From assembly GCA_964510205.1 (NCBI GenBank), contig CAZEBW010000012.1:5029-69028 (forward strand): a stretch of 64,000 nucleotides of DNA. Reading direction: 5' to 3'. The notes below the pieces were generated by a model. That model was not told the DNA's origin and ran no database searches. It saw only the letters and a list, made by a program, of their open reading frames with translations. Positions 1,811 through 44,917 of this stretch are shown in pieces. A program made the translations under genes and the position numbers. The stretch's first letter is position 1. Every line of letters starts with the position of its first letter. This DNA comes from an uncultured Anaerolineae bacterium (GTDB taxonomy: Bacteria; Chloroflexota; Anaerolineae; VGOG01).

Positions 1811-1876
1811 AATCGTACCTTCCCCAAAAGCCTACACACCCTACAAAGCCTACACAACCCTACACACCCTACACCC
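1804..1876. repeat. 73-bp inverted repeat, copy A (partner at 43694-43766)
   Basis: the reverse complement of 43694-43766 matches 1804-1876 with one indel; contains about five tandem 9-mers of the form CCCTACACA. Confidence 0.8.
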
Positions 1877-1909
1877 CGGGAAAGCGATCGGCATAGCAAA
1901 CGATGAAGA

Positions 1910-11222: not shown

Positions 11223-11510
11223 TCACACTACGATGGCCCCAGGTTCCTCGTGCAGCACCTCTACCCCGCTGGTGACCTCTGTCTGGCGCACACACCCGGC
11301 GCAAAGGTAATAGTACCGCACTCTGTCTACCCTCGGCCTGATTACTCTGGCCGTGGCCTTCTTCATCCGCCTCAGTTCCTCCTTGTCCAGCAAGCACTCG
11401 AACACGCTGTACTGCACCGGCGAACCGTAGTTCAGCAGGGTGTTGTGCAGCTTCGTCCGCCGACGATCGTTGGAGATATCGTAGACTACAAGTACGAACT
11501 GCTTGCCCAT
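11223..11510 (-). CDS. cas2: Cas2
   Basis: MGKQFVLVVYDISNDRRRTKLHNTLLNYGSPVQYSVFEC matches the Cas2 signature; ATG at 11510 chosen over the upstream GTG ORF start. Confidence 0.85.
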   Translation of the reverse strand: MGKQFVLVVYDISNDRRRTKLHNTLLNYGSPVQYSVFECLLDKEELRRMKKATARVIRPRVDRVRYYYLCAGCVRQTEVTSGVEVLHEEPGAIVV

Positions 11511-11602
11511 AGTATATCTCGATCCAATCAAGATGGCAAACATGCAAAACGTGAAACGTGAGACGTAAGACGCGAGGCGTGAAACCCAGGGCCTGGAACG
11601 TT

Positions 11603-12598
11603 CTATTTGGCTAAGAAAGGCAAGTAGACTTCTGCTTCCCCCTCGATCACCTTGCGCATCAGACGGGCCTGTACCTCGAAACACTTCTGGTAGGTCAACC
11701 GCCGCCCGGCTAGAGGATGGATGACCTCGGTCTGCAAGCGGTCCGTGTACTGGCTCAAGAATTCCCGTAGACCCGAACGCCGCAGGAGCACACCCCCCTT
11801 GTCACCAGGCCGGAAATCGTCCGGCGTCAATATCCGCTTGTTCACCACCGTCAACACCACCGAGTTCACGATCACACTGCGGAATTCCTCCACCAGGTCC
11901 AAAGCCAGCGCGGGGCGACCGTATTTGTCAGCGTGAAAGAAGCCGTCGTACGGATCCAAGCCCACTACTTCCAGGGCCGTCATCATGTTGTGCCCCAACA
12001 GAGTGTATCCCAGGCTCAGCATGGCGTTCACCGGATCGCCTGGTGGCCGCCGCACCCGCTTCTCAAAACCCCACTCCGCTGGCATCGCCTGACGGAACAC
12101 CTGGAAGTAGGCTCGCGCACCCACACCCTCCAGCCCACGGAGGGTGCCCAACTCCGGCGCGTCATCCACTTGCTTGATGGCCGATGCAATCTGCTCGATG
12201 GTTCCATCGTCTATCTCCGCATGATCCCGACACAGCCGCCGCGCCAGGGTGCGCTCGTTACGCAACTTGCCCCCCACGATGGCCCGCCCTATCTCCAGGC
12301 AGAATCCGTCGTCCAACGCCCGCTGGTACTGCTTGTGCCGCAAGGGGATGTTCTTGGCCATCGGCGGCGTCAGCCGTCCGCGCAAGGTCCCGCTGCGGCT
12401 GACGAAGGCCAGCTCGATACCGGCGTCCAGCAGAGCCAGCAAAGCCGGCGTGGTGGCCCCCGTCCAACCCACCAGTACCACGTCCGATACCCGACTCAGA
12501 GGCACCCGCAGCAGGACCTCGTCCTCTTTGGTCACCAACAAGCGGCGATATTCTTTCTCGATCCGCGCCCCTTGCTCGGTCACGTACAACGTCGCCAT
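11603..12598 (-). CDS. cas1: Cas1
   Basis: NAMLSLGYTLL...GLDPYDGFFH...ALALDLVEEFR Cas1 motifs; start MATLYV at 12598 (the ORF extends to 12697). Confidence 0.9.
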   Translation of the reverse strand: MATLYVTEQGARIEKEYRRLLVTKEDEVLLRVPLSRVSDVVLVGWTGATTPALLALLDAGIELAFVSRSGTLRGRLTPPMAKNIPLRHKQYQRALDDGFCLEIGRAIVGGKLRNERTLARRLCRDHAEIDDGTIEQIASAIKQVDDAPELGTLRGLEGVGARAYFQVFRQAMPAEWGFEKRVRRPPGDPVNAMLSLGYTLLGHNMMTALEVVGLDPYDGFFHADKYGRPALALDLVEEFRSVIVNSVVLTVVNKRILTPDDFRPGDKGGVLLRRSGLREFLSQYTDRLQTEVIHPLAGRRLTYQKCFEVQARLMRKVIEGEAEVYLPFLAK

Positions 12599-12717
12599 TG
12601 GGCGGCCCTCATGTTCGAGGTTGGGCAAGGTCTCTGACCGCAGCTCCTCGTAGCGCCAGCCTGAAGAGCTGATGCCGAGCGAGGTTGCCAGCGCCACCTG
12701 TTCACGGCGGCGTGTAT

Positions 12718-13638
12718 TTACTCGTACCCGTCCGGCACATAATCGTAGAACAAGTAAGGGTCGAAATCCCCCTTGACCTCGATGCGTTTATTCTCGCACA
12801 AGAAGCTGTAGGTGTCCCGATAGAAATGCACCCCCAGGTAGTCAAATCCCTCGTCGAAGTGAGTGATGGCCGTCTTGTGCGGCTCCAATTGCAGCTTCAA
12901 CCCAGCCAGGATGCGCTCCGTGTCTCGCCAGGACGCCTCCACTTCGTCCCGGTCGGCACAGAAGACACAGAAATCATCAGCATACCGCACCGGCCGATAG
13001 CCTTGCTCTGTGAGTCCCACGTCCAGACGATGCAAGTAGATATTGCACCATAGAGGCGAGATCACCGCTCCCAGTGGGATGCCCACCGCCCGCTCCGGGT
13101 CGCGCCGGCCGATCCGCAGCCACTGCTCCATTAGCCGCAGCACGACGGGATCATCCACCTCCTCCTGCACGAACTCTATCAGCAGGCCGTGGTCCAGGCT
13201 GTCGAAACATTCATCAATGTCGCCATCGAGCACATATTGCCAGCCCGCGTCGCGGTGGTGGAGGATGGCCTGCACCGCGTCGCGCAGCCCCCGCCCCTGC
13301 CGATAGCCGGTGCTGCAATCGAGAAAATGACGGTCGAAACGATCATCCAGCACCCGCAGCACGGCCCGCTGCAGCACGCGGTCGGTCACCGTCAGGATGG
13401 ACAACTGACGGAGTGAGCCATCGCGCTTGGGCACGTAGAAACGGCGCAGCCGCCGTGGACGGTAGGTATTGGCCCGCACCGCCGCCGCCAGATTGACCAG
13501 CCGCTCTTCCCACCTCCTCCGCCAGCGCTTGACGCTCACCTCGTCAATGCCCGCTGCCCCCTTCTTCCGCGCCACCTCTTCCCAGGCCTCCCGCATGTTC
13601 TCCGCTTGCAAAACGCGATCAATCAACCTCTTGGTCAT
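12718..13638 (-). CDS. group II intron-like reverse transcriptase, CRISPR-associated, not fused to Cas1
   Basis: RT motifs including RYADDFCVF (YADD); N-terminal RT domain 0-like region; sits directly upstream of cas1. Confidence 0.9.
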   Translation of the reverse strand: MTKRLIDRVLQAENMREAWEEVARKKGAAGIDEVSVKRWRRRWEERLVNLAAAVRANTYRPRRLRRFYVPKRDGSLRQLSILTVTDRVLQRAVLRVLDDRFDRHFLDCSTGYRQGRGLRDAVQAILHHRDAGWQYVLDGDIDECFDSLDHGLLIEFVQEEVDDPVVLRLMEQWLRIGRRDPERAVGIPLGAVISPLWCNIYLHRLDVGLTEQGYRPVRYADDFCVFCADRDEVEASWRDTERILAGLKLQLEPHKTAITHFDEGFDYLGVHFYRDTYSFLCENKRIEVKGDFDPYLFYDYVPDGYE

Positions 13639-13768: not shown

Positions 13769-14557
13769 TCACCTTGTCCCTTGAACCCTCGTCTGCCCCA
13801 ATCCCATAGTCGTCTTGTGCCCCGTGCCGCAGTAGAAAGCGTAGGCGGCCAGGGTGTGCAGCAGGCGCAGCCAGTAGGGATCGCGGCGCAGGGCGCGAAA
13901 GGAGCAGCGACCCACGAAGCCGATGAACGTAGCCGGCCCGAAGCGCACCACCCGGCTCCTCAGCCGATAGCGGCTCACGCCCACGCACTCCTCGGCGAAA
14001 CGCTTCAGATCGGGATGCAGCGACAGCGGGGCGAAGGTGTTCCACTTGTTCAGCCAGTGGTCGAATACCAATCCCGGCAGCGGGAAGGGCTGATGCTTCC
14101 CTTGGGAGCGAAAGGTGGTCGGCGTGGCGAACTCCAGGTTCAGCCACGGTGGGGGATCCTCTGCTCCCAGCAGGTGGCCCTGGGCCAGGGCCTCGTAACT
14201 CGTCTGCCCGGCCCAGGCATGATCCGTCCCGTCTGCCGTGGCCCCCGCCACCTGGAACAATTGATCGGCCAGCATCAACGTGTTGGGCAGATTGGGCAGT
14301 ATTTGCTCCTCGAGTATGGCGGCCACTTCGGCCGTCAGCGCGGTCAGGCGCAACCAGGGCTGCTGGCTGTGACGCTGCTCGGCCCGCAACGCCACAGTGT
14401 AGGGTCTCAGTCCATTACCCTCGTGCAATGTCGCTGCCAGGGCAGGATCTGCCGCCTGTGCTTGATCCAGAAACCAGGCCTGGGTCGCCCGTCCCAGGTC
14501 TGGCCGCTGTTCATCCGCCTCAGCAGCCTGCAATTTGATCACCGCACTAACCAGCAT
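13769..14557 (-). CDS. cas6: Cas6 endoribonuclease
   Basis: C-terminal glycine-rich loop GTGHKTTMGLGQ (GxGxxxxxGxG) and RAMP-like fold features. Confidence 0.75.
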   Translation of the reverse strand: MLVSAVIKLQAAEADEQRPDLGRATQAWFLDQAQAADPALAATLHEGNGLRPYTVALRAEQRHSQQPWLRLTALTAEVAAILEEQILPNLPNTLMLADQLFQVAGATADGTDHAWAGQTSYEALAQGHLLGAEDPPPWLNLEFATPTTFRSQGKHQPFPLPGLVFDHWLNKWNTFAPLSLHPDLKRFAEECVGVSRYRLRSRVVRFGPATFIGFVGRCSFRALRRDPYWLRLLHTLAAYAFYCGTGHKTTMGLGQTRVQGTR

Positions 14558-14618: not shown

Positions 14619-15788
14619 TCAGAAGAAGGTGTCTGAGAGCTCAGGGTCGTCCTTTGCCAGCCACAACCTCTCTGCCACCTCCCCCATCTCCAGTTCCTCC
14701 AGCCGACCCTCGATCTCTTCCAGCTTCTCCCACACACTGGTCCCTTTCGGCACCCAGCCCATCTTCCAGTCCAGGTCAGCGATGAGGCGATCTGGGCGCA
14801 TGGTCAGGAAATATCCCCAGTCCAGCGCCTCTTCCAAGTAGGAGATCAAACCGGTGGCCCAATCGTGGAAGGGTTCGCTCCCCGGCAGGAAAGCCCAGCG
14901 GATTTGGGCCACTGCCTCCAGCCGCGTGCCGACCACAACCAACTGGGAGCCACGGTGCAGCTTGAGTCGTTGCAGAAATACCTGCATGGGCTGACTTTTC
15001 CGCCCAGCCACCGCCAGTTGAGGGTAGGCTCGTATCTTCACCTGGCCGAAGCGCCGATGGGTCAGTCGCCAGAGCCATCCTCCTTCCCTGTCGGTCTCGC
15101 TTTCCATATCCACTGTCTGCGGCCACCACAGGCGCCACTCGTCTGGCCTCTGGTCGGCGTGCAGGAAGGGATTGTCGCACAGAGGTGGGGGCAGGTCACT
15201 GACGGACAATTGTTTCGCTGGTAAGTCCACTTTCCACCAGCCATAGGCCGCTTCGGGGCCCAGGGAATCCTCACCGTAGCGATGCAGGACGCACAGCAGT
15301 AGGTACTGCAAGAGATCGGCGTTGGTGGAGGCGATGAAGTGCTGAAAGGGAGTTCCTTGAGTAACAGCTTCACGCCATGAAGTAGCGAAGGCCTCTGTCT
15401 GCGGCGCGTTCTTGGGATAGCGGCGGGCGAAGGCTCGCCGGGCGTGTACCGTCACCTGGTACGAGCGGCGCTGGGCTACGCCGGGGCGGCCAGATGCAGG
15501 CCAGTGGTAGGGCAGCCAGACTTCGACGAGGGCGCGTCTGCTCTCCGTGCGACTGTAGAGGAGCGCCACGCCGAGCGTCAGAGTTAGGGTGATCAGCGCT
15601 CCAACGCTGAAGGCCAACCATTGCTGTCCCAGGGTTTCGCCGCCGGGCCACAGGGCTTCGTAAAGCCCACTGGCCAACAGGTTGAGAATCGTCCCCAGGG
15701 CCACCGTCACCAGCACCAGGGCCACCAGTTCCCCCCGTGAGCGGCGGATGGTCTCGATCTTGCTGTAAGGTGATCTACGGCGTCGCAT
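14619..15788 (-). CDS. uncharacterised membrane protein embedded in the cmr operon
   Basis: 389 aa; two N-terminal TM helices (LVALVLVTVALGTILNLLASGL, LAFSVGALITLTLTLGVALLY) then a soluble domain with no recognised motif; overlaps the upstream gene by 14 nt. Confidence 0.5.
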   Translation of the reverse strand: MRRRRSPYSKIETIRRSRGELVALVLVTVALGTILNLLASGLYEALWPGGETLGQQWLAFSVGALITLTLTLGVALLYSRTESRRALVEVWLPYHWPASGRPGVAQRRSYQVTVHARRAFARRYPKNAPQTEAFATSWREAVTQGTPFQHFIASTNADLLQYLLLCVLHRYGEDSLGPEAAYGWWKVDLPAKQLSVSDLPPPLCDNPFLHADQRPDEWRLWWPQTVDMESETDREGGWLWRLTHRRFGQVKIRAYPQLAVAGRKSQPMQVFLQRLKLHRGSQLVVVGTRLEAVAQIRWAFLPGSEPFHDWATGLISYLEEALDWGYFLTMRPDRLIADLDWKMGWVPKGTSVWEKLEEIEGRLEELEMGEVAERLWLAKDDPELSDTFF

Positions 15789-16680
15789 CGCTCACCGCTT
15801 CCCAGATGCCGTAGGGGCCGACGAACAAGGGGGGCACATCTCCCTCAAACCGTCCGCCTGGGGCCCAGGCAACAATCGGTTCAGAGACATCCTGACCAGC
15901 CCCACGCCGCACTCCCCCTCGCTGGCCATTGGCCCACTCCCGACCCACCACAGGTTCCAGCGGTCCTTGTACTGGCATGTGGACACTTTGCGACACCTTC
16001 AGGTGGGCGTGAAGAGTCCTCCCACTCAGGTCGCGCGGCCGTGGCCACCGGCTAGTCCCCACATTAGGGCCGACCCACTCGCTGTGTCGCACCATTCGCC
16101 CAAAGCCATAGCCCTGTTCTCCGCCGACAAAGAGTTCTGTCAGATAGCCCAAGATCGTGGCGTCGTCCAGGTCTGCTAACGGCGGTGGGGCCACTGAACG
16201 GTCCTGATCCAGGTACAGGTAGCCTTGCAGGTAGACCGGGCGAGCAGGAGGCTGGTCTGTTTGCGTCTGAGGAGCGATGAACTCGATCTCGTGCAGGGAG
16301 GCTTCCTCCGCCGTCCAGGTAGAAGCAGTCAAGGCCGTGCTGCCAAAGGAGCCGATGAAGCGGGCCTCAAAGTCGGCGGCCGGTAGATCGCCATAGTGCC
16401 AAGTTCCTTGCTCCAGTCGGGGGTAATAAGGTCCCTCGCCGGCCAGCTTCAGGTAGAAGTAACTGGCGATAACGCGATCACGGACATAATCGCCCACAGC
16501 GAGGTAGTCGGTGGGTCTTGGCTGTGCGTAGCAGGCCCGTGTCAGCCGGGCAGTGATCGCGCCCCACATATCCCGCCCCGGCAGGTAGTAGCGAGTGCGC
16601 TGGATGTTACCCAGCTTGCGATAGCCGATGTGCAGAGGTGATGAGAGGTGGTAGGTCAGTTGATAGCTGTGCCAAGCCAT
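15775..16680 (-). CDS. type III RAMP, Cmr3-like (Cas5 family), tentative
   Basis: LSSPLHIGY...YYLPGRDMWGAITARL plus C-terminal G-rich GGEQGYGFGRM; start MAWHSY at 16680 preceded by GAGGAG RBS. Confidence 0.5.
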   Translation of the reverse strand: MAWHSYQLTYHLSSPLHIGYRKLGNIQRTRYYLPGRDMWGAITARLTRACYAQPRPTDYLAVGDYVRDRVIASYFYLKLAGEGPYYPRLEQGTWHYGDLPAADFEARFIGSFGSTALTASTWTAEEASLHEIEFIAPQTQTDQPPARPVYLQGYLYLDQDRSVAPPPLADLDDATILGYLTELFVGGEQGYGFGRMVRHSEWVGPNVGTSRWPRPRDLSGRTLHAHLKVSQSVHMPVQGPLEPVVGREWANGQRGGVRRGAGQDVSEPIVAWAPGGRFEGDVPPLFVGPYGIWEAVSDATP

Positions 16681-16693
16681 GCTTCTCTCCTCA

Positions 16694-17059
16694 TCAAGGT
16701 AACGACCGCAGACCATAGCGGGCGTATATTAGAGTGCGCTCCACTAGCTGCTTGGCCAGGAGCAACTTCCGCAAGTCTTCAGTCATCTGTACGACCGCGT
16801 CGTCGTCGCTTCCCTCTGGTAATGGCGCACCGACGGTGTTGTGTCGCAGCAATGCCCTGAGCAAGCTCCATACATTCTTGGTTGGTTGGTCCAGATTGCG
16901 GTACTTCAAAAACAGGTAGAAGGCATAGAAGCCATCCTCTTGCAGTACTCCCAGGGCATTGTTCAGACGGTTTTCCAGGTCCTTGTTACGGGTGGAGCCA
17001 CTTAGCTCCACAATGCTATTCGCGCAATCGGCGCAATGGGCATCTAGGTTCGTCGCCAT
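16694..17059 (-). CDS. cmr5: small alpha-helical subunit, Cmr5/Cas11-like
   Basis: 121 aa helical protein between cmr4 and a RAMP gene; strong GGAGGAGG RBS. Confidence 0.5.
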   Translation of the reverse strand: MATNLDAHCADCANSIVELSGSTRNKDLENRLNNALGVLQEDGFYAFYLFLKYRNLDQPTKNVWSLLRALLRHNTVGAPLPEGSDDDAVVQMTEDLRKLLLAKQLVERTLIYARYGLRSLP

Positions 17060-17060: not shown

Positions 17061-18083
17061 TCACACCTCCTCCAGATTCAACACTCGCAACCGGCCCATC
17101 CCCCGGGTGTTCATTCCTCCCACTCCCAGATGTTCCATCAGTGCCACTCCCTGCTCCACGTGTTGGCGTACCCAGGCGATGTCGTGGGGAATGGTGCGCA
17201 TCCCTTCGGTGGTCTGATCCCTGATTTGGAAGTGCTGCGGGTTGTTATAGACCACATCGAAGTAGAAAACTGTGGCCCTGGGCAAGGCCTCGTAGGTAAA
17301 AAGAGCCTTGTCGTCAGCAGCACCTGTTTCTGGGTCAATGGCTACCGAGGTACGCACTTCCAGATTGTCGTTCACCACCTTGCTGAACAGTTCATCGGAA
17401 AGCAGCACGAGCCGGTCAAAGACCTCGTCAAGCGCGGGATTGCCCGCCGGCAGTTCAGGCAGTGCATCGTGAATACTCCCATTCTCCAGATCATCCCCTG
17501 TCTGCAGCAGCAACCACCCCAGGTTCAGCCGGGTTAGCTGCTGGTTGGAGGCAGGGTGCAACGAAGGTGCTAGGGATACTTGGCCCGTCGACACTTGAGG
17601 CGGGTGCGCCATTCCCGCCCGGCCCAGGGTGCCAGGAGACGTGACCCAGACCGGCCCAACCATGGAGTGCACCGGAAAGAACAGCACCCGGGCATCAAAG
17701 AACTGAGCCATGCCCTGCAGGCTTTGCTGCGTGCGACCGTTGGAAAAGCCGAAGGACACACAGACCGGACAATCCGGGTGGCAGCAGTGCTCCTCGCCGA
17801 AGTCACCACCCTTGCCAGCGCAACTGACTGTCCTTATTTCGGGAAGGTCATTCGGCCCCCGCTCTACCTCCCGTCGGGTCTGATAGCGCCCGGTTCGCAT
17901 GGCCGTATAGGTCCGGGCTACTCCGGAGAGACTGCTGCCGGGGATCTTAGGCAGGTTGTCGCCCGGCTCGCGGATGATAGACAGATCCACCCGGCCCAGC
18001 CGGTACCCCCCGGTGCCCACGTGAATTGGATCCAGTGCCAAGGCATAGTACCGCTGGCTGTGAAAGATGTTTCCATTGCTCAT
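17061..18083 (-). CDS. cmr4: Cmr4 (Cas7 backbone RAMP)
   Basis: LDPIHVGTGG...IPGSSLSGVAR and C-terminal G-rich GVGGMNTRGMGRLRV; ATG overlaps the cas10 stop (ATGA). Confidence 0.85.
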   Translation of the reverse strand: MSNGNIFHSQRYYALALDPIHVGTGGYRLGRVDLSIIREPGDNLPKIPGSSLSGVARTYTAMRTGRYQTRREVERGPNDLPEIRTVSCAGKGGDFGEEHCCHPDCPVCVSFGFSNGRTQQSLQGMAQFFDARVLFFPVHSMVGPVWVTSPGTLGRAGMAHPPQVSTGQVSLAPSLHPASNQQLTRLNLGWLLLQTGDDLENGSIHDALPELPAGNPALDEVFDRLVLLSDELFSKVVNDNLEVRTSVAIDPETGAADDKALFTYEALPRATVFYFDVVYNNPQHFQIRDQTTEGMRTIPHDIAWVRQHVEQGVALMEHLGVGGMNTRGMGRLRVLNLEEV

Positions 18084-21061
18084 TGCTCTGCTCCTTTCTC
18101 TTTCAGGATTTGCATGTGCAATTCTAGACAATCAAAGAACAGGCCATCCAGCATGGCCTGGCGGAGCCCCCTGTAGGCGGGGCTCTCTGGTGTGTAGACA
18201 GAAAACTCCTTGCCCAGAACCTGGGTGACCAGTTTCTCATACGTTTGCCATTCATTACCCGTTCGTTCCTTCTCAGCCAGGCCCCATTCCTCGAAGCGGG
18301 TGGCCAGCAAGTCACGGATTCCGTGCAGCTTGGTAGTGGTCATGCCGGTCGACCAGCACCACTGCCAGATCTGCTCCATCCGGCGTGAGTCTTCCAGTAG
18401 GTAGGGGCGGGGACTGTGGCGTGGGCCGAAGAGCGGATGGGGGCGCCGGCCGGTCGCCTCGTCCAGACGTATGTCGAAGCGGCGGGCGGATGTATCCAGG
18501 AAGATGTACTCAAAGCGGGATGGATGGACCTGGATCTGCTCACGGGGAGATACGGAACTCAAAGAGCCCAGGTACCATTGATCGCTGATTTCTTCATCGC
18601 CCATTTTCAGGGCAACAAGCCATTCCACGCCGTTCTGGAAGACGATGCGGCGTTGATCACCATCGTCCATCACCTCTTGGACCGGCCAAGTTTGGCGTTC
18701 ATTCGGGAAGGCCAGCATCCGCCGTCCGGCATCCAGGACCGCATAGAGAGGGATGTGCCGGTCGAAGAAAACCAGCCCTAGGTGAATAGGCAACCGATCT
18801 CGCACCCGACCCATCTCTTCTTCATACCGACCGCGGATTCTACCGACTGCTGCCAGCGCCTGTGCCCCTGGCACTAACGCCATGAAGAGGAAAGGTTCCG
18901 TAAGCAGAGAGATGTAGGGCTTATAGGGTGTAGGGTCTGGCTCCGCCCCTGTGATGCGAAAATCACCGGCTTTGACACTGGCCCGACCATAGCCGGATGG
19001 TTCGTAGAGTGTCACCGGCCCTCGCAGCTTCCTGCCCCATTCGTCCGAGGATCCCCCCAAGGACTTCAACCTAGTGGCTGTGATCAGCTTGAGCCTGTCT
19101 GAATTCCATACTAAGGGCACGTCTCCGAAGGAATACCGAGCCTCGTAGACGTGAAATTTGCCGGGCAGGGCTGGTGGTTCCGGAGTCAATTCTAGCCGTC
19201 TTTCTTCTTCCCACAGCACCTGGTTGAGAATCTGAGTCTCTGCTTCTTGCCAGAAACGATGTGTGGTTTCCCATGTGCGGCGCAGGCGGGCAAAAGACGG
19301 GTTCTTGGGATGACCAGGGGCCGCCAGCAGGGAGCGGATGTAGCTCCCATCCAACCAGTTCTCCAGACCGAAGCGACCCACGACCAAAGCTACGCGGCCA
19401 TGTTCGTCCGCCACTTCGTCTATCCAGATTGTGCGACTCAAGAGGCCATCTTTGTTCCGAGCCCAATCTTGAGAACGACGACCACGCCGGGCCAGACACA
19501 CGCCGCACAGTTGGCGTTTTTGAGCCTTATCGGGGTCTCTGGCAAAGTTAGGCAGATCCGCTTCTACGTATCCCTGTGGCCGCACCCCGCAGATCGAGCA
19601 GACTTCGGCCCCCACCCGCTGCCGCCAACTCTGCCGGATGAGGCCGGGTTCGGCCCAGAGTGGGGTTCGTTGGGCCAGGAGCCCGCCTAGTTCGGTTGCC
19701 TGGCGGGAGGGTTTAGATAGTGGTATTGGCTGCAGTATCACCTCTCCCCGCAGGCGTTTGCGGAAGGCTTGCTGGATTGTGTCTTTGACTAGGGTGACGA
19801 TCACCAGCCCTTCATTGTCGCCGTCCAGGGCTGGCACCAGGAAGGCACTGCCATTCTCGTCGCGATAGATCTCGTTCCCCAGAGGGGAGATCACCTCTAT
19901 GGCCCGCTTCACATCGTTCAGAGCGTCCTCCAGGACAGCCTTGCGCCCCAACAGATCAGTGACGTGGTAAGCCTGTTCCAGATAGCCCAGGCCGTCGTAG
20001 CCCACTCGTAACAGCCGCCATTGGATGCTGTTAACCTCTGGGAATGTGTAGCTTGGGTTTCGCGTCTGTTCCAGCAGAATCTTGGCCAGGGCAGCCTTGT
20101 ACAGGCTGGCCACAGAGAAGGAGTGGTCCCACAAGGTCACGTCATTGGCGGCACGGCGGGTTTCGCCCAGGGCCCGGCGGAAGGCAACCTCGGTGAGTTT
20201 TCGTAACCCCTCGACCCACCCGTCTGCTGTTGGCCAGCCGTCGTAGAGGATCTCCTGCCAGAACTCAGGGGGCAACGTATGTCCGGCAGGCAATTTAGCT
20301 CGTTCTGTCCCGACACGCTGTAGGACGAGGGCCAGGTTATTGGCGTAGTTATGGCGCACTTGTTTCAGTTCGTCGGTTTTGATACGCAAGCTATCCGGCT
20401 CGTGGCCGAAGGCGGTGGCGATGCAGGTGTCGCCGAGATGTTGTTTAAGGCCACCTTTGTCAGCCCCGGCCTTGTCTACGGCCGAATCCGCACCATCACA
20501 ACCCTCAAATCCTGCCGTCAGAAGTTGCGTCGCTGGTCCGTGTACAGCGAGTAGCGGGGAATGATGTGCCTCGAGGAAATCACCTATGGTTCGTTTCTCT
20601 TCGGATGGCCAATGAAAGGTCAGGTGCAAGTCATCCAGCAATTGAAGAAGGCTGTCCGGCAGAAAGTCGTCGGGAACAAGAGCCTCTTCCCTGATAACCC
20701 GTCTACCCTCGGCATCGCTAATCTTGAGCCACAATTCATCCATTTGTTGCCAGATATGCCCCTTCGCGTGCCCCCGTTCTTCCCGGCTAACACCCTCATC
20801 TGGTAAACTCTTGGCCCAGTCTTGGACTTTCCGCCTGAATGCGGCTTCTACCTCCTTGCTGGTTACAGGATCGAGCGAATAGTAGCTTCTCATCGCTCGC
20901 CTCAGCACAAGGTGGTGCTCAAAGCCTAACTGTTTAGACAACTCAGCTTGAACAGCCACAAACTCCGCGCTCAACTTCCCCAGGTCGTGGATCAGCGCCC
21001 CAATCTCGGCCAGCAGGATCAGGGCGCGGTGCTGCTCCAAAGTGGCTAGTAGGTTACTCAT
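18080..21061 (-). CDS. cas10: Cas10/Cmr2 with N-terminal HD domain
   Basis: 993 aa; HD motif LIHDLGK; treble-clef CSICG...CGVCLARRG between the palm domains; the palm-2 region aligns but appears to lack GGDD (SLLTEPFLFMALVPGAQAL). Confidence 0.85.
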   Translation of the reverse strand: MSNLLATLEQHRALILLAEIGALIHDLGKLSAEFVAVQAELSKQLGFEHHLVLRRAMRSYYSLDPVTSKEVEAAFRRKVQDWAKSLPDEGVSREERGHAKGHIWQQMDELWLKISDAEGRRVIREEALVPDDFLPDSLLQLLDDLHLTFHWPSEEKRTIGDFLEAHHSPLLAVHGPATQLLTAGFEGCDGADSAVDKAGADKGGLKQHLGDTCIATAFGHEPDSLRIKTDELKQVRHNYANNLALVLQRVGTERAKLPAGHTLPPEFWQEILYDGWPTADGWVEGLRKLTEVAFRRALGETRRAANDVTLWDHSFSVASLYKAALAKILLEQTRNPSYTFPEVNSIQWRLLRVGYDGLGYLEQAYHVTDLLGRKAVLEDALNDVKRAIEVISPLGNEIYRDENGSAFLVPALDGDNEGLVIVTLVKDTIQQAFRKRLRGEVILQPIPLSKPSRQATELGGLLAQRTPLWAEPGLIRQSWRQRVGAEVCSICGVRPQGYVEADLPNFARDPDKAQKRQLCGVCLARRGRRSQDWARNKDGLLSRTIWIDEVADEHGRVALVVGRFGLENWLDGSYIRSLLAAPGHPKNPSFARLRRTWETTHRFWQEAETQILNQVLWEEERRLELTPEPPALPGKFHVYEARYSFGDVPLVWNSDRLKLITATRLKSLGGSSDEWGRKLRGPVTLYEPSGYGRASVKAGDFRITGAEPDPTPYKPYISLLTEPFLFMALVPGAQALAAVGRIRGRYEEEMGRVRDRLPIHLGLVFFDRHIPLYAVLDAGRRMLAFPNERQTWPVQEVMDDGDQRRIVFQNGVEWLVALKMGDEEISDQWYLGSLSSVSPREQIQVHPSRFEYIFLDTSARRFDIRLDEATGRRPHPLFGPRHSPRPYLLEDSRRMEQIWQWCWSTGMTTTKLHGIRDLLATRFEEWGLAEKERTGNEWQTYEKLVTQVLGKEFSVYTPESPAYRGLRQAMLDGLFFDCLELHMQILKEKGAEQ

Positions 21062-22343
21062 GGAGTACCTCCTCTCGCAACGCGGCAGCTAATCTATCGG
21101 CTACCCTGTCCAGGTCCGCCAGATCCACACGATCCGTCTCTTCCTGCAAGGGTACCATCTCCGGCTCCGACACGACAGCCGTCTCAGTTGGAGGTGGCGG
21201 TTCGCGCCAAGTGTGAGCTTCTCTGTCCCAATCCGGGTGTCGCTTACGCAGTCTCTTGTATTGGCTGGTGCGGCTTCTCCCCCAGTCGCTCTCGTCTAGC
21301 TCAGCGTTTGTCCAACGGGGAAAACCTTCCAACTGCATTCGCTGGACGAAATCAGCGATGTCTGCTTCTAGACTGTCATCCGAGTCCTTTGGTGCCGCTT
21401 CCTCTTGAGTCTCCTCGGGTGGCATCCGGCTCACTAAGGCATGAACACCCCAATAGAAGTCACGCACGTATGGCTTAGCCAGGCCGAAGCCGCTGGTCCG
21501 CTTGGCCGAAAAGCCCACGGTCCGAAACATGGCCTCCAAGCCTCCTGCTATTTGCTGCAGGTGATGACCTACCTCGGCTTTGTAGTCTGTCCAGGGTAAC
21601 CCCGCTCTATCAAAGGGTACGTACAGCAAGGAAAAGACGCCTCGTGCGCCAGCCGGCACGCATTCCAGGCTAAAGGGGTCCCGCCCGCTCCCACTCTCTC
21701 GATCATGTGGGTTGAGCATCTCCAACTCCAAGGCATCGAAGTGGGTGGGATAGAACCGTAAGCGTCCGGCGCGGAAATAGCCATCGGGCACAGTTCCTTC
21801 TGGACGTGGTGGCCCAAACAGCAAACAGAAGTCGTCATTCTCTTGGTCGCCATTTTGCCAGCGCATAGCTGCCCGCAGATTTCCTTTCCACCCGCTGCCT
21901 CCGAGCATCGGCACCTTGAAAGCCCACTCCTTGCGCAAGGGGTTGTCGTGAGGATAAAATGGTGCATCGTCCTTGCTGATGAAAGGCTCTTGTAGTGTGA
22001 ATCGGAATTGCAGAGCGAATGATCCCATTGGCAATGTCCCCAGCACACCGGCATCCAAGCGCGGCCGCAGCAGTCCCAGACAACGCAGACGTCTCTGCTC
22101 AGAGGCGATCAAGTCGCCAGTGTAAGGTGTAGGACCTTGCGTTCGATGAACTATTTCCCTGTAGTGTCTACGTTCTTTAGCCCAATCAGAATCCGGAAGT
22201 GAAGTGAGGGCCTGAATCTGGGACAGTAGCCTCAGTTGCCCATAGCGATCCCGGACTTCGCTGAAGGCGTCTTCTCGTCCTATCAGGGCATCAGCATCTC
22301 TCTCTCCCCTGATCACAAATGTAGCGTGCCAATCGTAGCTCAT
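21054..22343 (-). CDS. type III RAMP, Cmr6-like (Cas7 family), with C-terminal extension
   Basis: KVPMLGGSGWKGNLRAAMR (G-rich loop-type motif) and FGLAKP; start MSYDW at 22343 with AGGAGG RBS. Confidence 0.55.
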   Translation of the reverse strand: MSYDWHATFVIRGERDADALIGREDAFSEVRDRYGQLRLLSQIQALTSLPDSDWAKERRHYREIVHRTQGPTPYTGDLIASEQRRLRCLGLLRPRLDAGVLGTLPMGSFALQFRFTLQEPFISKDDAPFYPHDNPLRKEWAFKVPMLGGSGWKGNLRAAMRWQNGDQENDDFCLLFGPPRPEGTVPDGYFRAGRLRFYPTHFDALELEMLNPHDRESGSGRDPFSLECVPAGARGVFSLLYVPFDRAGLPWTDYKAEVGHHLQQIAGGLEAMFRTVGFSAKRTSGFGLAKPYVRDFYWGVHALVSRMPPEETQEEAAPKDSDDSLEADIADFVQRMQLEGFPRWTNAELDESDWGRSRTSQYKRLRKRHPDWDREAHTWREPPPPTETAVVSEPEMVPLQEETDRVDLADLDRVADRLAAALREEVLHE

Positions 22344-22354: not shown

Positions 22355-23497
22355 TCACACTAGCAGGCTAGTCAAGAACGTCCCTACGTTTCCTATGCAG
22401 GATACCGTATCGCGGGATGAGTTGAACTCACGCCAGACAATGGAAGTCAAGTCCACCAATGGTGGAGCGCCGAAAACATCTCGCCAGAAAGCCGAGCTAT
22501 GCAACAACATGTGCAGATCGTTCAGGAATGCATCTCGATCGAAGTCCCGTCTATGTCGCGGCAGCCAGCCCCATACCCGGAAAGGCCACTGCCCGTCATC
22601 TGGATAAGCGCCCGAGATGTTTATTTTGGCTTTGCGACGTTGCCGGCCAATGTGCCCCCAAATGTGCCGTTGATTTCCCCAAGTGGCTGCAAAGGCATTG
22701 CTCCCGTAGCGAAGTTGGTTCTTCACCGCAGGTGCAATTGAAACAGATCCAGGGCTCCCTCCCCCCCATCGCTCCAGAGTGGTAGCATGAGCACCCAAAA
22801 GAGGACGCCTATCTGAATTTGTTCGCGTCCACCACTGGTCGGCAGCATCGGCCACCAGCCGGAAGCGGGCAAAGAAGAAATCGGTCAGGGACGGGAGCGG
22901 CCCCCTATACAATGTACCAGTCGAGTAGTGGGTCAGGAACTTAGCTAAGTCTACAGTGACCGGTTGATCATCCTTTTCGGCCTTGATCCTCACTACGCCG
23001 TAACCGTGCTGGGTTCGAGCTCCTATGCCTCCCCAGGTTGCGGCCAGTTGCATGGTTACCAGCACTCTGTTGGCTACATCATCTTGATCACCGCGTAGCA
23101 CGATCAATCGCCCGTTGACACCCGTGTCCTCTGTGGCGAGCCGACCGGCTCCATAGAACCAACCAGTTCTGCGGCCTGGGGGTTTGAATCTGCACCAATC
23201 TTGCTTATCCCGTTGGGGATAGGCGAGTTGCCCGGTATCCAGTTGCAGGCGAAACTTCCGCCCCCAGCCGGTGCAACCGAATAGATCGCAGGCCACACAA
23301 TGCTCCCGATCTGCACATTGGTTTCCTCCTGGCACCGTCGGGTCACATGCATCCTCCCCCAGCCCCCGCACAATGGCCTCGTACCACCACCGCAGGCTGC
23401 CGATGATGCCCGTCTCGTGCACGCGGTCGCAGGTGCCGTCCACCCCGCCCGTCCACAGCGGGGTCAATGTATGCAGCTTGATCTCCATAGACCTCAC
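22355..23497 (-). CDS. cmr1: Cmr1-like RAMP
   Basis: LTPLWTGG...GSLRWWYEA (Cmr1 WW signature) and CVACDLFGC zinc motif; GTG start. Confidence 0.7.
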   Translation of the reverse strand: MRSMEIKLHTLTPLWTGGVDGTCDRVHETGIIGSLRWWYEAIVRGLGEDACDPTVPGGNQCADREHCVACDLFGCTGWGRKFRLQLDTGQLAYPQRDKQDWCRFKPPGRRTGWFYGAGRLATEDTGVNGRLIVLRGDQDDVANRVLVTMQLAATWGGIGARTQHGYGVVRIKAEKDDQPVTVDLAKFLTHYSTGTLYRGPLPSLTDFFFARFRLVADAADQWWTRTNSDRRPLLGAHATTLERWGGGSPGSVSIAPAVKNQLRYGSNAFAATWGNQRHIWGHIGRQRRKAKINISGAYPDDGQWPFRVWGWLPRHRRDFDRDAFLNDLHMLLHSSAFWRDVFGAPPLVDLTSIVWREFNSSRDTVSCIGNVGTFLTSLLV

Positions 23498-24420: not shown

Positions 24421-25146
24421 TTACATTACATTCCGGGACAACTCTGATCCTGTTGGACAGAATTCAAGCAGGGGACACTCACTACATCGCGGATTTCTGG
24501 GCGAACAATAGTTCCTACCAAGAAGAACCATTCCAACATGCAAATCTCGTCTCAGATACTCGGGAATCTTCTCTTGGAGCTCGTCGGCTTGACGCTCCGT
24601 GAGATAGATGTCGCTAGGCGTCCATCCGAGTCTATGTGCGACTCTACGGCAGTGGACGTCTACGGGAAAGACGGCGCGATTGAGCGCATACATCAACACA
24701 CACCTCGCAGTCTTAATACTGACACCTGGCAGGGAAGTTAGAAACTTCTCCGCCTCCTCTATCTCCATCTGTTTGAGGGGTGCTAAAGTAACCCGTCCGT
24801 GTTTCTCTTTAAGCTCCGAAGCGATCTTCGTGATGGCATGCGCTTTTTTGTTGTGTAAGCCCCCCTGTTCAATAGTCTTTGCTACGTATTCTGGGCGGGC
24901 CTCCGCGATACTGTTCGCCGTCTTGAACTCGCGCCGCAGCGAGCGATAGGTTTCCTGGTAAACGTCGGGGGGGGTACGGGAAGAAAGGATGATGTAGAGC
25001 AACTCATTGAACGGGTTCTTCTTGTTGCCCAACGTCGGTCGCCCGAACTCTTGCACGAGGGCTTCTGTTATCTCCTCTACGTGAGGGTGGAAACAATTAC
25101 TGTCATTGTTCACGCTTCTGTCCTCAACGGCGAACAGGGTCTTCAT
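24421..25146 (-). CDS. endonuclease III family HhH-GPD DNA glycosylase (Nth/Mig-like)
   Basis: HhH LPGVSIKTARCVL with catalytic Lys, VDVHCRRV Asp motif, and 4Fe-4S loop C-x6-C-x2-C-x5-C (CSPRNPRCSECPLLEFC). Confidence 0.8.
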   Translation of the reverse strand: MKTLFAVEDRSVNNDSNCFHPHVEEITEALVQEFGRPTLGNKKNPFNELLYIILSSRTPPDVYQETYRSLRREFKTANSIAEARPEYVAKTIEQGGLHNKKAHAITKIASELKEKHGRVTLAPLKQMEIEEAEKFLTSLPGVSIKTARCVLMYALNRAVFPVDVHCRRVAHRLGWTPSDIYLTERQADELQEKIPEYLRRDLHVGMVLLGRNYCSPRNPRCSECPLLEFCPTGSELSRNVM

Positions 25147-25152
25147 GCGAAA

Positions 25153-25824
25153 CTATGTGGATGACCACTTCATCCAGGTGTCGAGCCTGTCCAAGTGAGA
25201 CTTGAGGTCGAATATCTGGTGCTCGGTGTAAAAGGTCCAACAATACCTTTTCCCGTATAGGCTCAGGAGCAGGCAAAGCACGAGGGTAACTGGATCGTCG
25301 GCAGTCAGCGGGAAGGACGGTTGTGTCTCAGGAAGCCAACTCGGACATTCGACAGGTGGGCCGTAGCCCAAGCTCCGAATGAGCTGTGCGTGATAGAAAT
25401 CGTGGCGACCTACCTCTTTCCTCTCGTCCCCGTGAGGGCTTTCCAGGCGAAATCCAACACCACAGAGGTTTCCCTCGTTCCCATCACTGGAGATCAACAT
25501 GACTTTCATTGTCATCTTCGTTTTCGTCTCACCCAGGTTGCACCGCAGCGACAGGACCGGAACGAACTCGGGGTTCTTTTCCAACCGTGGCAGGTACAAG
25601 ACCTTGCTTCGCTCGGAGAAATCTACCTCGACTGCTTCGGAATCCGGAAACAGATTGGCCAACTCTGTCTCCCCAATGGGGGGCAGACTATTAATGAGCG
25701 TGCTCCAGGCTTTCAAAGCCCCGGCGGACGGTTTCCACCTCGGCTGTTGACGAATCCAGGCATTTTCCTGTATTCGACATAACGCTTCGAATAGTTGGCG
25801 CAGCGTACCGACAGTTTTCCGCAT
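25153..25824 (-). CDS. hypothetical protein
   Basis: 223-aa ORF; no motif recognised. Confidence 0.4.
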   Translation of the reverse strand: MRKTVGTLRQLFEALCRIQENAWIRQQPRWKPSAGALKAWSTLINSLPPIGETELANLFPDSEAVEVDFSERSKVLYLPRLEKNPEFVPVLSLRCNLGETKTKMTMKVMLISSDGNEGNLCGVGFRLESPHGDERKEVGRHDFYHAQLIRSLGYGPPVECPSWLPETQPSFPLTADDPVTLVLCLLLSLYGKRYCWTFYTEHQIFDLKSHLDRLDTWMKWSST

Positions 25825-25845
25825 AGAGCAGCCACCAAGAAATAT

Positions 25846-27036
25846 CTACAGGGAAAATCGCACTTTGGGGCGACAATCGACGCCTTTAAAGTCTTTTACG
25901 AACCTACGGGCAAACGGCGACTCTACATCTGCGACGAATTCCCTGTACCCTTCCTCGTAGAACCGAGAGGCATCTTCACAGAACACCCAACCGGGTCTTT
26001 CCATCTTCCAAGGTTCTCTCACTTCCAGGACGTCTTGACATTCTCGCAATTCGTCCCAGAACCAGACCGGCCGTGACAACCAATGATCTTTCTTCAACCG
26101 AAACGGCTCAATGAGGTCTGTCCTCAATCCGAGATCCTCGTGACTGACCAGCCGTGCTGTCCTGTTCCAGGTCTCAATGTCCATAGCATCGCCAGCCATT
26201 AGGCTTGGGTACCTCGAGACCAAATGCGGCGCATCCACTAGGATGTCCTGCTCGGGAAGCACGAGTCGCTCCAACCACTTCGAGATCCGCGCCGCACCGA
26301 CTCTAGCCAAGACGTCTTCACTCACGCCGACTGCGTTCGGTACATCCTTTCGTTCTAACCCGTTGCCAGATTCCGTGACGAACTGTCGGAACGTCGTCTC
26401 CGAAGGCTTAGCTCCCAAGAACTCACCGATGGAGCGTGGGAGCATATCGAACATCTCGGAGGTAAGACCAACAACCTGGCAGATGGGCATATCCGCGGTC
26501 AAGCTTTCCTTGACGTCTTCGACTTTCTTATCGAAATCACGAAGGTATTCGGGCAAGATCGGCCAATGCCACGGCCGGAAACTTGCTTCCGTAGCTTTCG
26601 TAACTCTCCAAAGACCGGGATTGCCCAGTTGTTCTCCTCCTACGTACAAGTCCGTGAACGGTTGCAGCTCTCCCCGTAGAGTGAGATCGAAAGCGTTGTC
26701 GCCGTATCGATATCCTACGATCAGACCGCAACTCGAGAAACAACGAGCGAGGTAAGCGACGACGTCACCGTTCGAGAAAGCGATAGCTTCGAACAGGTCG
26801 TAATCCACGACTAATATGGATGCATCGTCCACAGAGATCCGTTCGCCATCCTCCCAAGTACCGTCTTTCCGAAACGCATGCCGCCTATCTTGTAGGATTT
26901 TCATCGAGTCTATCAACTCTTGGTTTTCAGGGGTCTCGATTTCGAAGGTATCCCTCACGACGGTCAAACTCTCGAGGAATTCTCGGACCCTACCCCTGAA
27001 ACCCGGCTCGTCATCGTATATCAGGATCTTCCTCAT
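25846..27036 (-). CDS. receiver (CheY-like)-like N-terminal domain fused to an about 300-aa domain of unknown function
   Basis: MRKILIYDDEP... with acidic pair and candidate phospho-Asp (ILVVDYDL); start ATG abuts the stop of the upstream kinase gene. Confidence 0.45.
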   Translation of the reverse strand: MRKILIYDDEPGFRGRVREFLESLTVVRDTFEIETPENQELIDSMKILQDRRHAFRKDGTWEDGERISVDDASILVVDYDLFEAIAFSNGDVVAYLARCFSSCGLIVGYRYGDNAFDLTLRGELQPFTDLYVGGEQLGNPGLWRVTKATEASFRPWHWPILPEYLRDFDKKVEDVKESLTADMPICQVVGLTSEMFDMLPRSIGEFLGAKPSETTFRQFVTESGNGLERKDVPNAVGVSEDVLARVGAARISKWLERLVLPEQDILVDAPHLVSRYPSLMAGDAMDIETWNRTARLVSHEDLGLRTDLIEPFRLKKDHWLSRPVWFWDELRECQDVLEVREPWKMERPGWVFCEDASRFYEEGYREFVADVESPFARRFVKDFKGVDCRPKVRFSL

Positions 27037-29192: not shown

Positions 29193-29210
29193 GGCTGAAG
29201 ATGCTCCATA

Positions 29211-30266
29211 TCAGTCGACGTGTGTTTCGAGGTGACGTTTGATACTCCTGGCGATGACCCTCCCCAACTCGACGGGGACCGCGTTCCCCACGAGTCTCCC
29301 AACGACACTGAAGTAAACGGGGTCTCCGGGGGCGACAAACTGGTAGTCTTCTGGAAAGGTCTGAAGCAGGGCGGCTTCTCGCAGCGATATCGCGCGGTCT
29401 TGCTCGGGATGTCCGAACCTACCGTTCCCGAAGCCATGACACTGAGCAGTGAGCGTAGGAGCCGGTTCGTCCCACGCCATCCTCCCGTAGACGCTGGCGT
29501 AACCCTGCCCGCTCTCTTTCTTGTGACATTCGGCGACGAGTTCTTCGGGCCAGTCTCTCCAGGTACCTCCAGGCACCGACGCCCTTATCCTACGCAAGTT
29601 CAACCCCGACAGACTGCTAGCCTTGTGGAGCGGGTCGCTCTCGCTGGTCTGCCCGGCCTCAAGCGGTTCGAGGTGACCGATGGCATCCCGGACGGTTCCG
29701 TATTCGTCGGGAGAGTGTGTCTCGTCCACGATCTCGACTTCACCGTACCTGGAAGCGAAGAGTACCAACCTGGTCCGGTGCTGGGGGATTCCGTAGTCTG
29801 GGCAATACACCTCCGGATACTCTGTGACGTGGTATCCCTTCTCCTTCAATCGGTCGACGAAGGCGCGGTAGACCTCTCCGTCCCTGAAGGTGGCCAGGTC
29901 GGGGACGTTCTCCATTGAGGCGACATCGGGTTCCACTTCACAGATCAGATCGGCGAACTTGGGGACTAGTCTCCACTTCTCGTCTTTGTCTTCCTTCTTC
30001 TTCGTGTAAGGTGAATAGGGTTGACAAGGCGCACATCCGACCAGAATCTTGACGTGTCCCTCCGGATAAAGCGCCACAATCTCTTCGGTGGTCATGTCTT
30101 CGACTCTCTCGTTTATGAACCGTGCGCCGTCGTTGTTTGCCTCGTACGGGTACTCGCAGGCTTCGTCGACGTCGATTCCTGCCACGACGTCGAACCCTTC
30201 CAAGATGAAACCGTGGGTCAACGCCCCAGCGCCACAGAACAAATCTATGACTGAACAATTCTCCAT
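29211..30266 (-). CDS. DNA (cytosine-5)-methyltransferase
   Basis: motif I DLFCGAGAL, motif IV GCAPCQPYS, motif VI ENV, C-terminal QTFPEDYQF. Confidence 0.9.
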   Translation of the reverse strand: MENCSVIDLFCGAGALTHGFILEGFDVVAGIDVDEACEYPYEANNDGARFINERVEDMTTEEIVALYPEGHVKILVGCAPCQPYSPYTKKKEDKDEKWRLVPKFADLICEVEPDVASMENVPDLATFRDGEVYRAFVDRLKEKGYHVTEYPEVYCPDYGIPQHRTRLVLFASRYGEVEIVDETHSPDEYGTVRDAIGHLEPLEAGQTSESDPLHKASSLSGLNLRRIRASVPGGTWRDWPEELVAECHKKESGQGYASVYGRMAWDEPAPTLTAQCHGFGNGRFGHPEQDRAISLREAALLQTFPEDYQFVAPGDPVYFSVVGRLVGNAVPVELGRVIARSIKRHLETHVD

Positions 30267-30355
30267 CTGTTAGGCTACCCCTACTCCAGTTTTCTTTGGC
30301 ATTCCGAATAAACGACTTACTTTGACTACAAGTATAACCCGCAGCGGCTTAGAAG

Positions 30356-33076: not shown

Positions 33077-33087
33077 GGAATTCCCCC

Positions 33088-33116
33088 TTGACAAATGTCA
33101 AAAAACTCGCTACAAT
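33088..33116 (+). promoter_or_regulatory. consensus sigma70-like promoter oriented antisense to the flanking genes
   Basis: TTGACA-17-TACAAT on the plus strand; the -35 lies in the palindrome TTGACAAATGTCAA; a 12-bp hairpin (about 33150-33182) lies downstream. Confidence 0.4.
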
Positions 33117-33197
33117 ATCAACGAATGATGGATCGGGAGTACCCGGTCGGGAGAGGAGAGTCTGCGTGACTCTCCTCTTGTCGTTAGAACGCGCCCG

Positions 33198-44905: not shown

Positions 44906-44917
44906 GAGGCTACCGAA

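Follow-up and report, generated by a model that had tools for sequence, protein, structure and literature searches.

A complete subtype III-C CRISPR-Cas locus with a Cas10 lacking the cyclase motif in an uncultured Anaerolineae bacterium

The large subunit of subtype III-C CRISPR-Cas systems (formerly MTH326-like; the subunit is 'Cas10c' in PADLOC and CCTyper) has been described as an 'inactivated Cas10 (Csx11 subfamily)' (Makarova 2011, PMC3150331). Loss of the cyclase motif is a published defining trait of the subtype, as stated in PMC3150331, PMC6013697 and PMC8730458. The HD nuclease domain is missing in about half of III-C Cas10 proteins, according to a survey in which a mode of action independent of cyclic oligoadenylate (cOA) was inferred for such systems (PMC11229360). 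The locus described here lies in 64,000 nucleotides of DNA from an uncultured Anaerolineae bacterium (contig CAZEBW010000012.1); this whole 64-kb stretch is called the window. It carries a complete subtype III-C CRISPR-Cas system, whose large subunit is encoded on the minus strand at 18080-21061 and has no GGDD motif.

A first-pass annotation of the same DNA had assigned this protein to subtype III-B, an assignment that did not hold. Nor is the missing GGDD an oddity of this one protein. The loss of GGDD in the window Cas10c is correct, but it is ordinary and long known for subtype III-C. As a headline it adds nothing new, since cyclase-motif loss defines III-C and surveys had previously recorded that effectors activated by cOA are correspondingly lacking.

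The large subunit and its palm 2 hairpin

The following features of the large subunit are needed here (residue numbers are those of the protein).

18080-21061, minus strand: cas10c (Csx11 family), 993 amino acids, type III-C large subunit (from TIGR02682, PADLOC Cas10c, AlphaFold2 and Foldseek)
18869-18913, minus strand: palm 2 beta-hairpin I717-P731 (ISLLTEPFLFMALVP) (from the family profile, PF22335, AlphaFold2, hhalign and codons)
18887-18898, minus strand: GGDD-equivalent E722-P723-F724-L725 (from hhalign to T. thermophilus Csm1 and the family columns)

The open reading frame (ORF) runs from ATG to stop over 993 codons, and the plus-strand frame is stop-rich. Its product matched the NCBIfam Csx11 model TIGR02682 (E = 1.7e-107; 360.9 bits, curated cutoff 248.95) and the PADLOC Cas10c model 'CAS-III-C effector_LS' (E = 2.8e-151), with residues 3-987 on positions 2-785 of 785. 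None of the NCBIfam Cas10/Cmr2 models, nor Pfam Cmr2, matched at threshold. Since the Cas10 matches Csx11/Cas10c and the Cmr5 of the same operon matches a small-subunit model specific to III-C (PADLOC PDLC01471, 'CAS-III-C effector_SS', E = 3.6e-28), the product is the large subunit of subtype III-C and not an odd III-B Cmr2. The closest match among GTDB representatives was 37% identical, and the nearest relatives are Chloroflexota metagenome-assembled genomes (MAGs).

A family profile was needed for any further comparison because a single-sequence search of the PDB and a Pfam search at default thresholds both gave zero matches. The AlphaFold2 (AF2) model, with 66 family members as input, had a pLDDT (predicted local distance difference test score) of 92.9 and a pTM (predicted template modelling score) of 0.92. 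In Foldseek its top PDB matches were Csm1, Cmr2 and III-D Cas10 chains (probability 1.00, E down to 1e-7). From the N-terminus, HD and palm 1 are followed by the zinc finger, then by palm 2 and finally by a helical C-terminal domain. This order is the layout of the Cas10 superfamily, both in the model and by ordered hhalign anchors.

A motif scan of the 993 residues found no GGDD, GGDE, GGD, GDD, SGDD, AGDD or GGED, as the first-pass annotation had said of GGDD and GGDE. The absence of a tetrapeptide has little meaning on its own, and the homologous position was therefore fixed in four ways. When a profile of 118 homologues (alignment A1) was compared with the PDB, the stretch beginning M727-ALVP731 was paired with P. 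furiosus Cmr2 'LAILPVDKALEV...' (E = 0.013, 62 profile positions); the family side of this alignment reads 'MALVPxxxAL...RLPLHLGLVFF..RtPL..vLdAgrrmL'. The GGDDV of P. furiosus Cmr2, which we take to stand directly before LAILP and so outside the printed alignment, would then be opposite E722-L725. The Pfam family PF22335 (Cas10/Cmr2 palm 2) gave the same register, with residues 727-783 on model positions 63-119, at a sub-threshold E of 0.3. The AF2 model shows the palm 2 beta-hairpin that was expected, with strands 717-721 and 725-731, and a long helix (732-753) after it. For the fourth comparison, T. thermophilus Csm1 was taken from plasmid pTT27, its family was collected and 33 members were aligned (A3). 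In hhalign of the two families, G627-G628-D629-D630 of T. thermophilus Csm1 fell on E722-P723-F724-L725 (probability 88%, E = 3e-6), with Y-S-G-G-D-D-L-F-L-L-G-P over L-T-E722-P723-F724-L725-F-M-A-L-V-P.

The GGDD position is thus read as EPFL from alignments and model, and the palm 2 hairpin carries no acidic pair. The first-pass annotation was right that this hairpin has no acidic pair, but its register, with LTEPF at the GGDD position, was off by one to two residues. It had also named an alignment check, and in the comparisons with P. furiosus Cmr2, Csm1, PF22335 and the AF2 model no acidic pair in palm 2 turned out to have been mis-registered.

The strand beta1 of palm 2, which carries the first metal-binding Asp residues (DxD), reads LMLDADRMG in Csm1 and HADGDRMG in Cmr2. 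In Cas10c the corresponding strand (556-564) appears to end in G562-R563-F564, and the family shows almost no variation at G562 and F564. This mapping of DxD to G-R-F is approximate, because hhalign of the isolated N-terminal segment of palm 2 was not significant (probability 0.2%) and the placement follows strand positions in the AF2 model. As the GGDD hairpin is replaced and beta1 ends in G-R-F, the canonical cOA synthase site does not exist in this protein.

The replacement is a property of the family. In columns 722-725 of the 118 aligned homologues, E was found in 88 and P in 115, followed by R/A/S/T and then T/L/V/I, so that the family hairpin is (A/T)-E-P-x-x-F-M-A-L-V-P where GGDD is expected. 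No GGDD was present in this hairpin in any of the 118 metagenomic homologues. A genome set was also used, consisting of the 80 best of at least 378 Cas10c loci confirmed in a collection of representative genomes of bacteria and archaea. The 80 come from Chloroflexota, cyanobacteria, Methanothrix and Acidobacteriota, among others. None of these 80 loci had GGDD or GGDE at the palm 2 position, which reads like IPILAEPRTFMALVP. The string GGDD occurred in one of 120 homologues (P0097). It lies inside an insertion and the hairpin itself is LLTEPALFMALVP, so P0097 is ruled out as the holder of an active site.

Similarity to Cmr2 in sequence is very low, and the empty default Pfam and single-sequence PDB searches could be taken to mean that the missing GGDD is an artefact of alignment or annotation, or that the gene is a decaying pseudogene of a III-B Cmr2. 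This is hardly credible, and is refuted by five observations: the four registrations of the GGDD position (PDB profile, PF22335, AF2 and hhalign) are concordant, the protein matches curated Csx11/Cas10c models over its full length, the ORF of 993 codons is unbroken, the replacement motif EPxxFMALVP is strongly conserved across the family, and the locus has an array of 74 near-perfect repeats.

Operon, nuclease residues and mode of action

The genes of the locus and its CRISPR array are as follows.

22355-23488, minus strand: cmr1, Cas7-like RAMP (TIGR01894, E = 6.6e-17; PADLOC Cmr1, E = 4e-19)
21054-22343, minus strand: cmr6, RAMP (PADLOC Cmr6, E = 1.2e-59)
17061-18083, minus strand: cmr4, Cas7 backbone RNase (TIGR02580, E = 2.7e-30, above cutoff)
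16694-17059, minus strand: cmr5, Cas11 small subunit of III-C type (PADLOC Cmr5, E = 1.9e-29)
15775-16716, minus strand: cmr3, Cas5 (PADLOC Cmr3, E = 5.6e-69)
13769-14557, minus strand: cas6 (PF10040, E = 1.6e-20; PADLOC Cas6d-like, E = 5.3e-33)
12718-13638, minus strand: reverse transcriptase, group II intron-like, in its own ORF beside cas1 (PF00078, E = 8.5e-32; TIGR04416, E = 6.7e-78, below cutoff)
11603-12697, minus strand: cas1 (PF01867, E = 7.9e-91)
11223-11684, minus strand: cas2, longest ORF with its Cas2 domain from residue 63 on (PF09827, E = 4e-22; PADLOC Cas2)
5333-10932, minus strand: CRISPR array, 74 repeats of 37 nucleotides (74 matches against 0 expected)

The effector genes are in the order cmr1-cmr6-cas10c-cmr4-cmr5-cmr3, all on the minus strand, followed by a gene for a 389-amino-acid protein (see below), cas6, the reverse transcriptase (RT) gene, cas1 and cas2. 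The start of cas10c overlaps the stop of cmr6 by 8 nucleotides and its own stop overlaps the start of cmr4. The same order recurs in the 80 genome loci: 75 of them have Cmr4, 71 have Cmr6 and 69 have Cmr3, and the missing ones were lost to contig ends. RT was found in three of the 80. In one Ardenticatenia MAG (locus L004, 3274-4217) an NTP_transf_2 nucleotidyltransferase and HEPN gene pair lies between cmr6 and cas10c.

In the array 69 of the 74 repeats are identical, and the repeat on the transcribed minus strand ends in ...GACTGAAAC. A degenerate repeat stands at the 5333 end, and the leader is therefore probably beside cas2, at the opposite end. With 74 near-identical repeats and intact, overlapping ORFs, the system looks live. 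The array is far larger than the rows of tandem repeats supplied with the sequence implied, and many of the 'ORFs' listed between 5267 and 11070 are translated repeats.

Two further features of Cas10c bear on its likely activity.

20462-21061, minus strand: putative HD nuclease, spanning about residues 1-200 and including H25, D26, K29, H49, H166, D192 and K197 (from motifs and weak Cas3_HD matches)
19490-19606, minus strand: zinc finger of treble-clef type, C488-x2-C491 ... C519-x2-C522 (from invariant Cys and the Csm1 alignment)

The only HD in Cas10c is at residues 25-26, within IHDLGK. Weak Cas3_HD matches covered residues 17-46 of the protein and positions 17-64 of the family profile. H25, D26, K29, H49, H166, D192 and K197 are conserved in 92 of the 118 homologues and in the window Cas10c. 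The other 26 (P0028, P0047, P0053 and others) have N or M in place of D26 (HN or HM), and H49, H166, D192 and K197 were lost with it. This joint loss indicates that the residues form a single functional site, and since the window Cas10c keeps all of them an active HD nuclease is plausible here. Relatives with HN or HM are apparently without either known Cas10 activity.

The four zinc-finger Cys are invariant in the 118 homologues and were aligned by hhalign with the CxxC...CxxC of Csm1; no CxxC pairs other than 488-491 and 519-522 occur in the protein. In Cmr4, 'GRVDLSIIRE' aligns with 'GVVDQPIQRE' of P. furiosus Cmr4 in the PDB alignments, and the Asp is kept. This is presumably the catalytic D26 of the P. 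furiosus protein. The first-pass annotation had described the HD motif and the treble-clef finger as intact, and both descriptions stand. It had also noted that no CARF/SAVED effector was present. Pfam, NCBIfam and PADLOC indeed gave no CARF or SAVED family among the scanned ORFs of the window, but the 389-amino-acid membrane protein encoded after cmr3, which is not of CARF/SAVED type, had been overlooked.

The best explanation, and one that is probable, is a complete III-C system in which a cyclase-dead Cas10c acts independently of cOA, with an HD nuclease and the Cmr4 RNase as its predicted activities. The array transcript would be cleaved by Cas6, and the Cmr-like complex would then engage complementary RNA. 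Bound RNA would be cleaved by the Cmr4 subunits, and target binding would also activate the intact N-terminal HD nuclease of the window Cas10c against DNA. Spacers could be obtained from RNA by means of the adjacent RT with Cas1-Cas2. The data above establish the family of the protein, the order of the genes, the loss in palm 2 at the level of residues, and the kept HD, zinc-finger and Cmr4 Asp residues. All of the enzymatic activities, as well as the absence of signalling, are inferred. The first-pass annotation had proposed a cOA-independent system relying on HD DNase and Cmr4 RNase: the loss of the palm 2 site, the retained Cmr4 Asp and the literature agree with this, and the DNase part is predicted from the HD motifs.

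HD residues are gone in 26 of the 118 metagenomic homologues with the full operon kept, and in 10 of the 16 genome loci with an alignable N-terminus; the survey cited above gives about half. Since relatives that lost the HD site keep the full operon, the family can function without it, and Cas10c might serve only as a scaffold and in target sensing. Defence would then come from RNA cleavage by Cmr4, and the HD domain of the window member would do little or nothing. This is unlikely. The window Cas10c retains every one of the co-varying HD residues, which points to selection for the nuclease in this member. In the type III systems that have been studied, moreover, cutting RNA and nothing else generally protects poorly against DNA phages. 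With intact HD residues, 74 repeats and RT-Cas1-Cas2, the locus is a clean and complete example of III-C, suited to a first biochemical or structural study of the subtype.

Palm 1 and the membrane protein

Three features are relevant to whether Cas10c could act other than through the HD domain.

19742-20209, minus strand: palm 1, about residues 285-440, with predicted beta1 at 348-354, a helix at 367-391 and a hairpin at 396-401/404-410 (AF2 secondary structure)
19850-19867, minus strand: palm 1 hairpin Y399-R400-D401-E402-N403-G404 (translation YRDENG)
14619-15788, minus strand: 389-amino-acid protein with two predicted N-terminal transmembrane helices, its start overlapping the stop of cmr3 by 14 nucleotides

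Conservation in the family is highest outside palm 2, in the palm 1 motif around YRDENG (P-L-G-N-E-I-Y399-R-D401-E402-N-G-S-x-F-x-V-P). D401, Y399, D369 and E389 are present in all 118 homologues and E402 in 112, while position 356 holds D or N in 115. YRDENG is unaltered in the 26 homologues whose HD site has degenerated, and in the 80 genome loci D401 is present in all but one of the motif variants listed. The palm 1 motif ETRRAANDVTLWDHS was aligned with 'DTQSEPDVSLYDHL' of Csm1; hhalign of the isolated palm 1 segment was not significant (probability 5.5%). At the same place the Csm1 hairpin is SAGGKF, and Cmr2 is without an acidic hairpin there. In the AF2 model the beta2-beta3 hairpin has D401-E402 at its tip, and D356 is just after beta1. 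In palm-fold cyclases and polymerases the metal ligands are found after beta1 and at the beta2-beta3 hairpin. Cmr3 contacts palm 1 in structures of Cmr2-Cmr3.

These positions raise the possibility that the palm is flipped and that the III-C Cas10 is still catalytic, its active site moved to palm 1 with palm 2 as a passive partner. D356, D401 and E402 would supply carboxylates facing a composite palm 1/palm 2 pocket, and nucleotidyl transfer would be retained. The product could be a signal molecule, for which the membrane protein encoded after cmr3 could be the target, or something like that of a polymerase. The near-invariance of D401, E402, Y399 and D356, their persistence in homologues with a degenerate HD site and almost throughout the 80 genome loci, the placement of the three carboxylates by AF2 at the metal-ligand positions of a palm, and the absence of the acidic hairpin from canonical Csm1 and Cmr2 all fit such a scheme. 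So does the translational coupling of the membrane protein to cmr3, which is seen in distant homologues too. The chance that it is correct is nevertheless slim. The acidic residues would be equally conserved if they formed a subunit interface or served allosteric coupling. In surveys III-C loci have no known effector family (PMC11229360). The membrane protein is encoded in two of the 80 representative III-C loci and cannot account for universal conservation in palm 1, and its fold gave no match to CARF, SAVED or another nucleotide sensor. If the scheme were true, III-C would make an unrecognised nucleotide product or perform templated or untemplated nucleotidyl transfer, and in the RT-linked clade the protein with two transmembrane helices would be a possible responder or have a role in spacer uptake.

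The 389-amino-acid protein has a soluble portion of about 300 residues after the transmembrane helices. It gave zero family matches in Pfam, NCBIfam and PADLOC. It has 54 homologues in a set of 5.8 billion proteins and 125 cluster representatives among 1.84 billion. The AF2 model (pLDDT 87.8) had no PDB fold match below E = 0.19. A sensor like Cap1, or of CARF or SAVED type, was considered and rejected, given no family match, a best fold E of 0.19 and a faint resemblance to START/Bet v1. Homologues were found at these positions.

L004: 9919-11190
L005: 11978-13147
L006: 9465-10526
L087: 7985-9103
L089: 10001-11086
L010: 5697-6797

The homologue is encoded directly after cmr3 in L004, L005, L006, L087, L089 and L090, wherever the contig suffices. 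Both of the representative III-C loci that have it, two of 80, are RT-bearing. Identity to the window copy is 47% in L005, 53% in L004 and 73% in L006. For RT and Cas1 it is 55% and 67% in L004 and 81% and 87% in L006, and in L005 neither was found. Cas10c, Cmr3, Cmr4 and Cmr5 are 32-41% identical to those of the window in all three loci. This pattern suggests that the membrane protein travels with the Cas6-RT-Cas1-Cas2 cassette and not with the effector genes, the three comparison points being too few for a firm assignment. From its position after cmr3, its co-occurrence with RT and the pattern of identities, the gene is best read as an accessory gene that is conserved within a clade of III-C loci linked to RT. 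On a short Joint Genome Institute (JGI) contig (L088, 1703-2074) a small ORF that weakly matches Csx3 (PF09620) stands between a distant homologue of the membrane protein and a downstream RT. Csx3, which binds or degrades cOA, would be unexpected in a III-C-like context; the match is weak and this contig has no Cas10.

Several points weigh against a cyclase-dead Cas10c that is independent of cOA. Taken alone, the sequence matches to palm 2 of Cmr2 are weak (E = 0.013 and 0.3). D401 and E402 would lie near D356 by fold topology, which is the classical catalytic geometry of a palm, and the palm module may have a function. It is perhaps not inert, because its acidic motif in palm 1 is conserved even where the HD site is dead. 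Elsewhere a protein with two transmembrane helices in a type III operon is typical of effectors activated by a signal, such as Cap1 (PMC12642688), and the conserved membrane protein resembles this architecture. The proposed lack of signalling is read from the absence of motifs, and neither the literature searched nor the PDB fold matches yielded a III-C complex studied biochemically or structurally. The questions of interest are why YRDENG is invariant even without both HD and GGDD, and what role is played by the membrane protein that accompanies the RT-linked adaptation genes.

Surroundings of the locus and comparison with known systems

Directly upstream of the III-C operon, a defence island occupies 24421-36480 on the minus strand. 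It encodes an EndoIII-like nickase, a 719-amino-acid HATPase protein, a C5 cytosine methylase, a DUF1156 (HmaB-like) methylase, a PglZ-like protein and a DUF499/HmaC-like ATPase. On an unrelated JGI contig (L002, 1120-7104) a DUF1156 methylase and a DUF499 protein are also encoded directly upstream of a III-C operon.

A near-perfect inverted repeat of about 85 nucleotides (AAAAYGCAAATGAAATCGTAC...GCCTACACACCCTACAAAGCCTACACAACCCTACACACCCTACACC) is present at about 1800-1880 (plus strand) and about 43690-43775 (minus strand). The copies are about 42 kb apart, and between them lie the CRISPR-Cas locus, the restriction/methylase island and a gene for a primase. Either they could mark both ends of a mobile element, or a small element could be present twice. 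In the region 40758-49174 a ComEC-like ORF (47990-49174, minus strand) is abutted by genes for a DnaG-type primase (40758-43598) and for a large serine recombinase (45946-48024). Of the 270 positions in the Competence model this ORF covers only the first 166, so that it may be truncated. The arrangement of primase, recombinase and ComEC-like ORF fits integration of a mobile element. At 49565-51658 a gene for a 697-amino-acid protein with four rhodanese domains contains a tandem repeat of 456 bp (3.9 copies, 87% matches); it adjoins multihaem cytochrome, 4Fe-4S and cytochrome b genes and is unrelated to the CRISPR locus.

The Cmr systems of subtype III-B (P. furiosus, T. thermophilus) have Cmr-type subunits in common with the window. 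Palm 2 past the hairpin can be aligned, with 'ALVPxxxAL...' in the window and 'AILPVDKAL...' in Cmr2, and in our own reading the Asp of a palm 1 helix is seemingly shared (D369-L-L-G-R in the window, 'DLYAGS/DLWASS' in Cmr2). However, III-B Cmr2 has GGDD and the beta1 motif DGD and makes cOA, whereas the window Cas10c has EPFL and G-R-F at the positions taken as equivalent. The gene order of T. thermophilus III-B, cmr2-cmr3-cmr1-cmr4-cmr5-cmr6, also differs from that of the window.

Subtype III-F (PMC11229360) and Cas10d of subtype I-D (PMC3150331) are like the window in combining an HD nuclease domain with a Cas10-like scaffold whose palm is inactive. They are separate families with other partner subunits, and PADLOC gave no significant III-F or Cas10d assignment for the window, the nearest being a marginal 'Cas10g' match (E = 0.0077). 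With Cap1, Cam1, Csx23 and CorA the 389-amino-acid protein shares its plan, with two N-terminal transmembrane helices and a cytosolic domain encoded in a type III operon, but it has no similarity to them in sequence or fold, and its partner Cas10 is without a cyclase site.

The closest likeness is to subtype III-C itself. The window shares the Csx11 family, the loss of GGDD and the set and order of subunits, and is likewise without a CARF/SAVED effector; the HD domain, which is optional in the subtype, is present (PMC11229360). In its Cas10 the locus is no different from other III-C systems. What it adds is an RT gene beside cas1 (three of 80 representative loci) and the membrane protein gene (two of 80).

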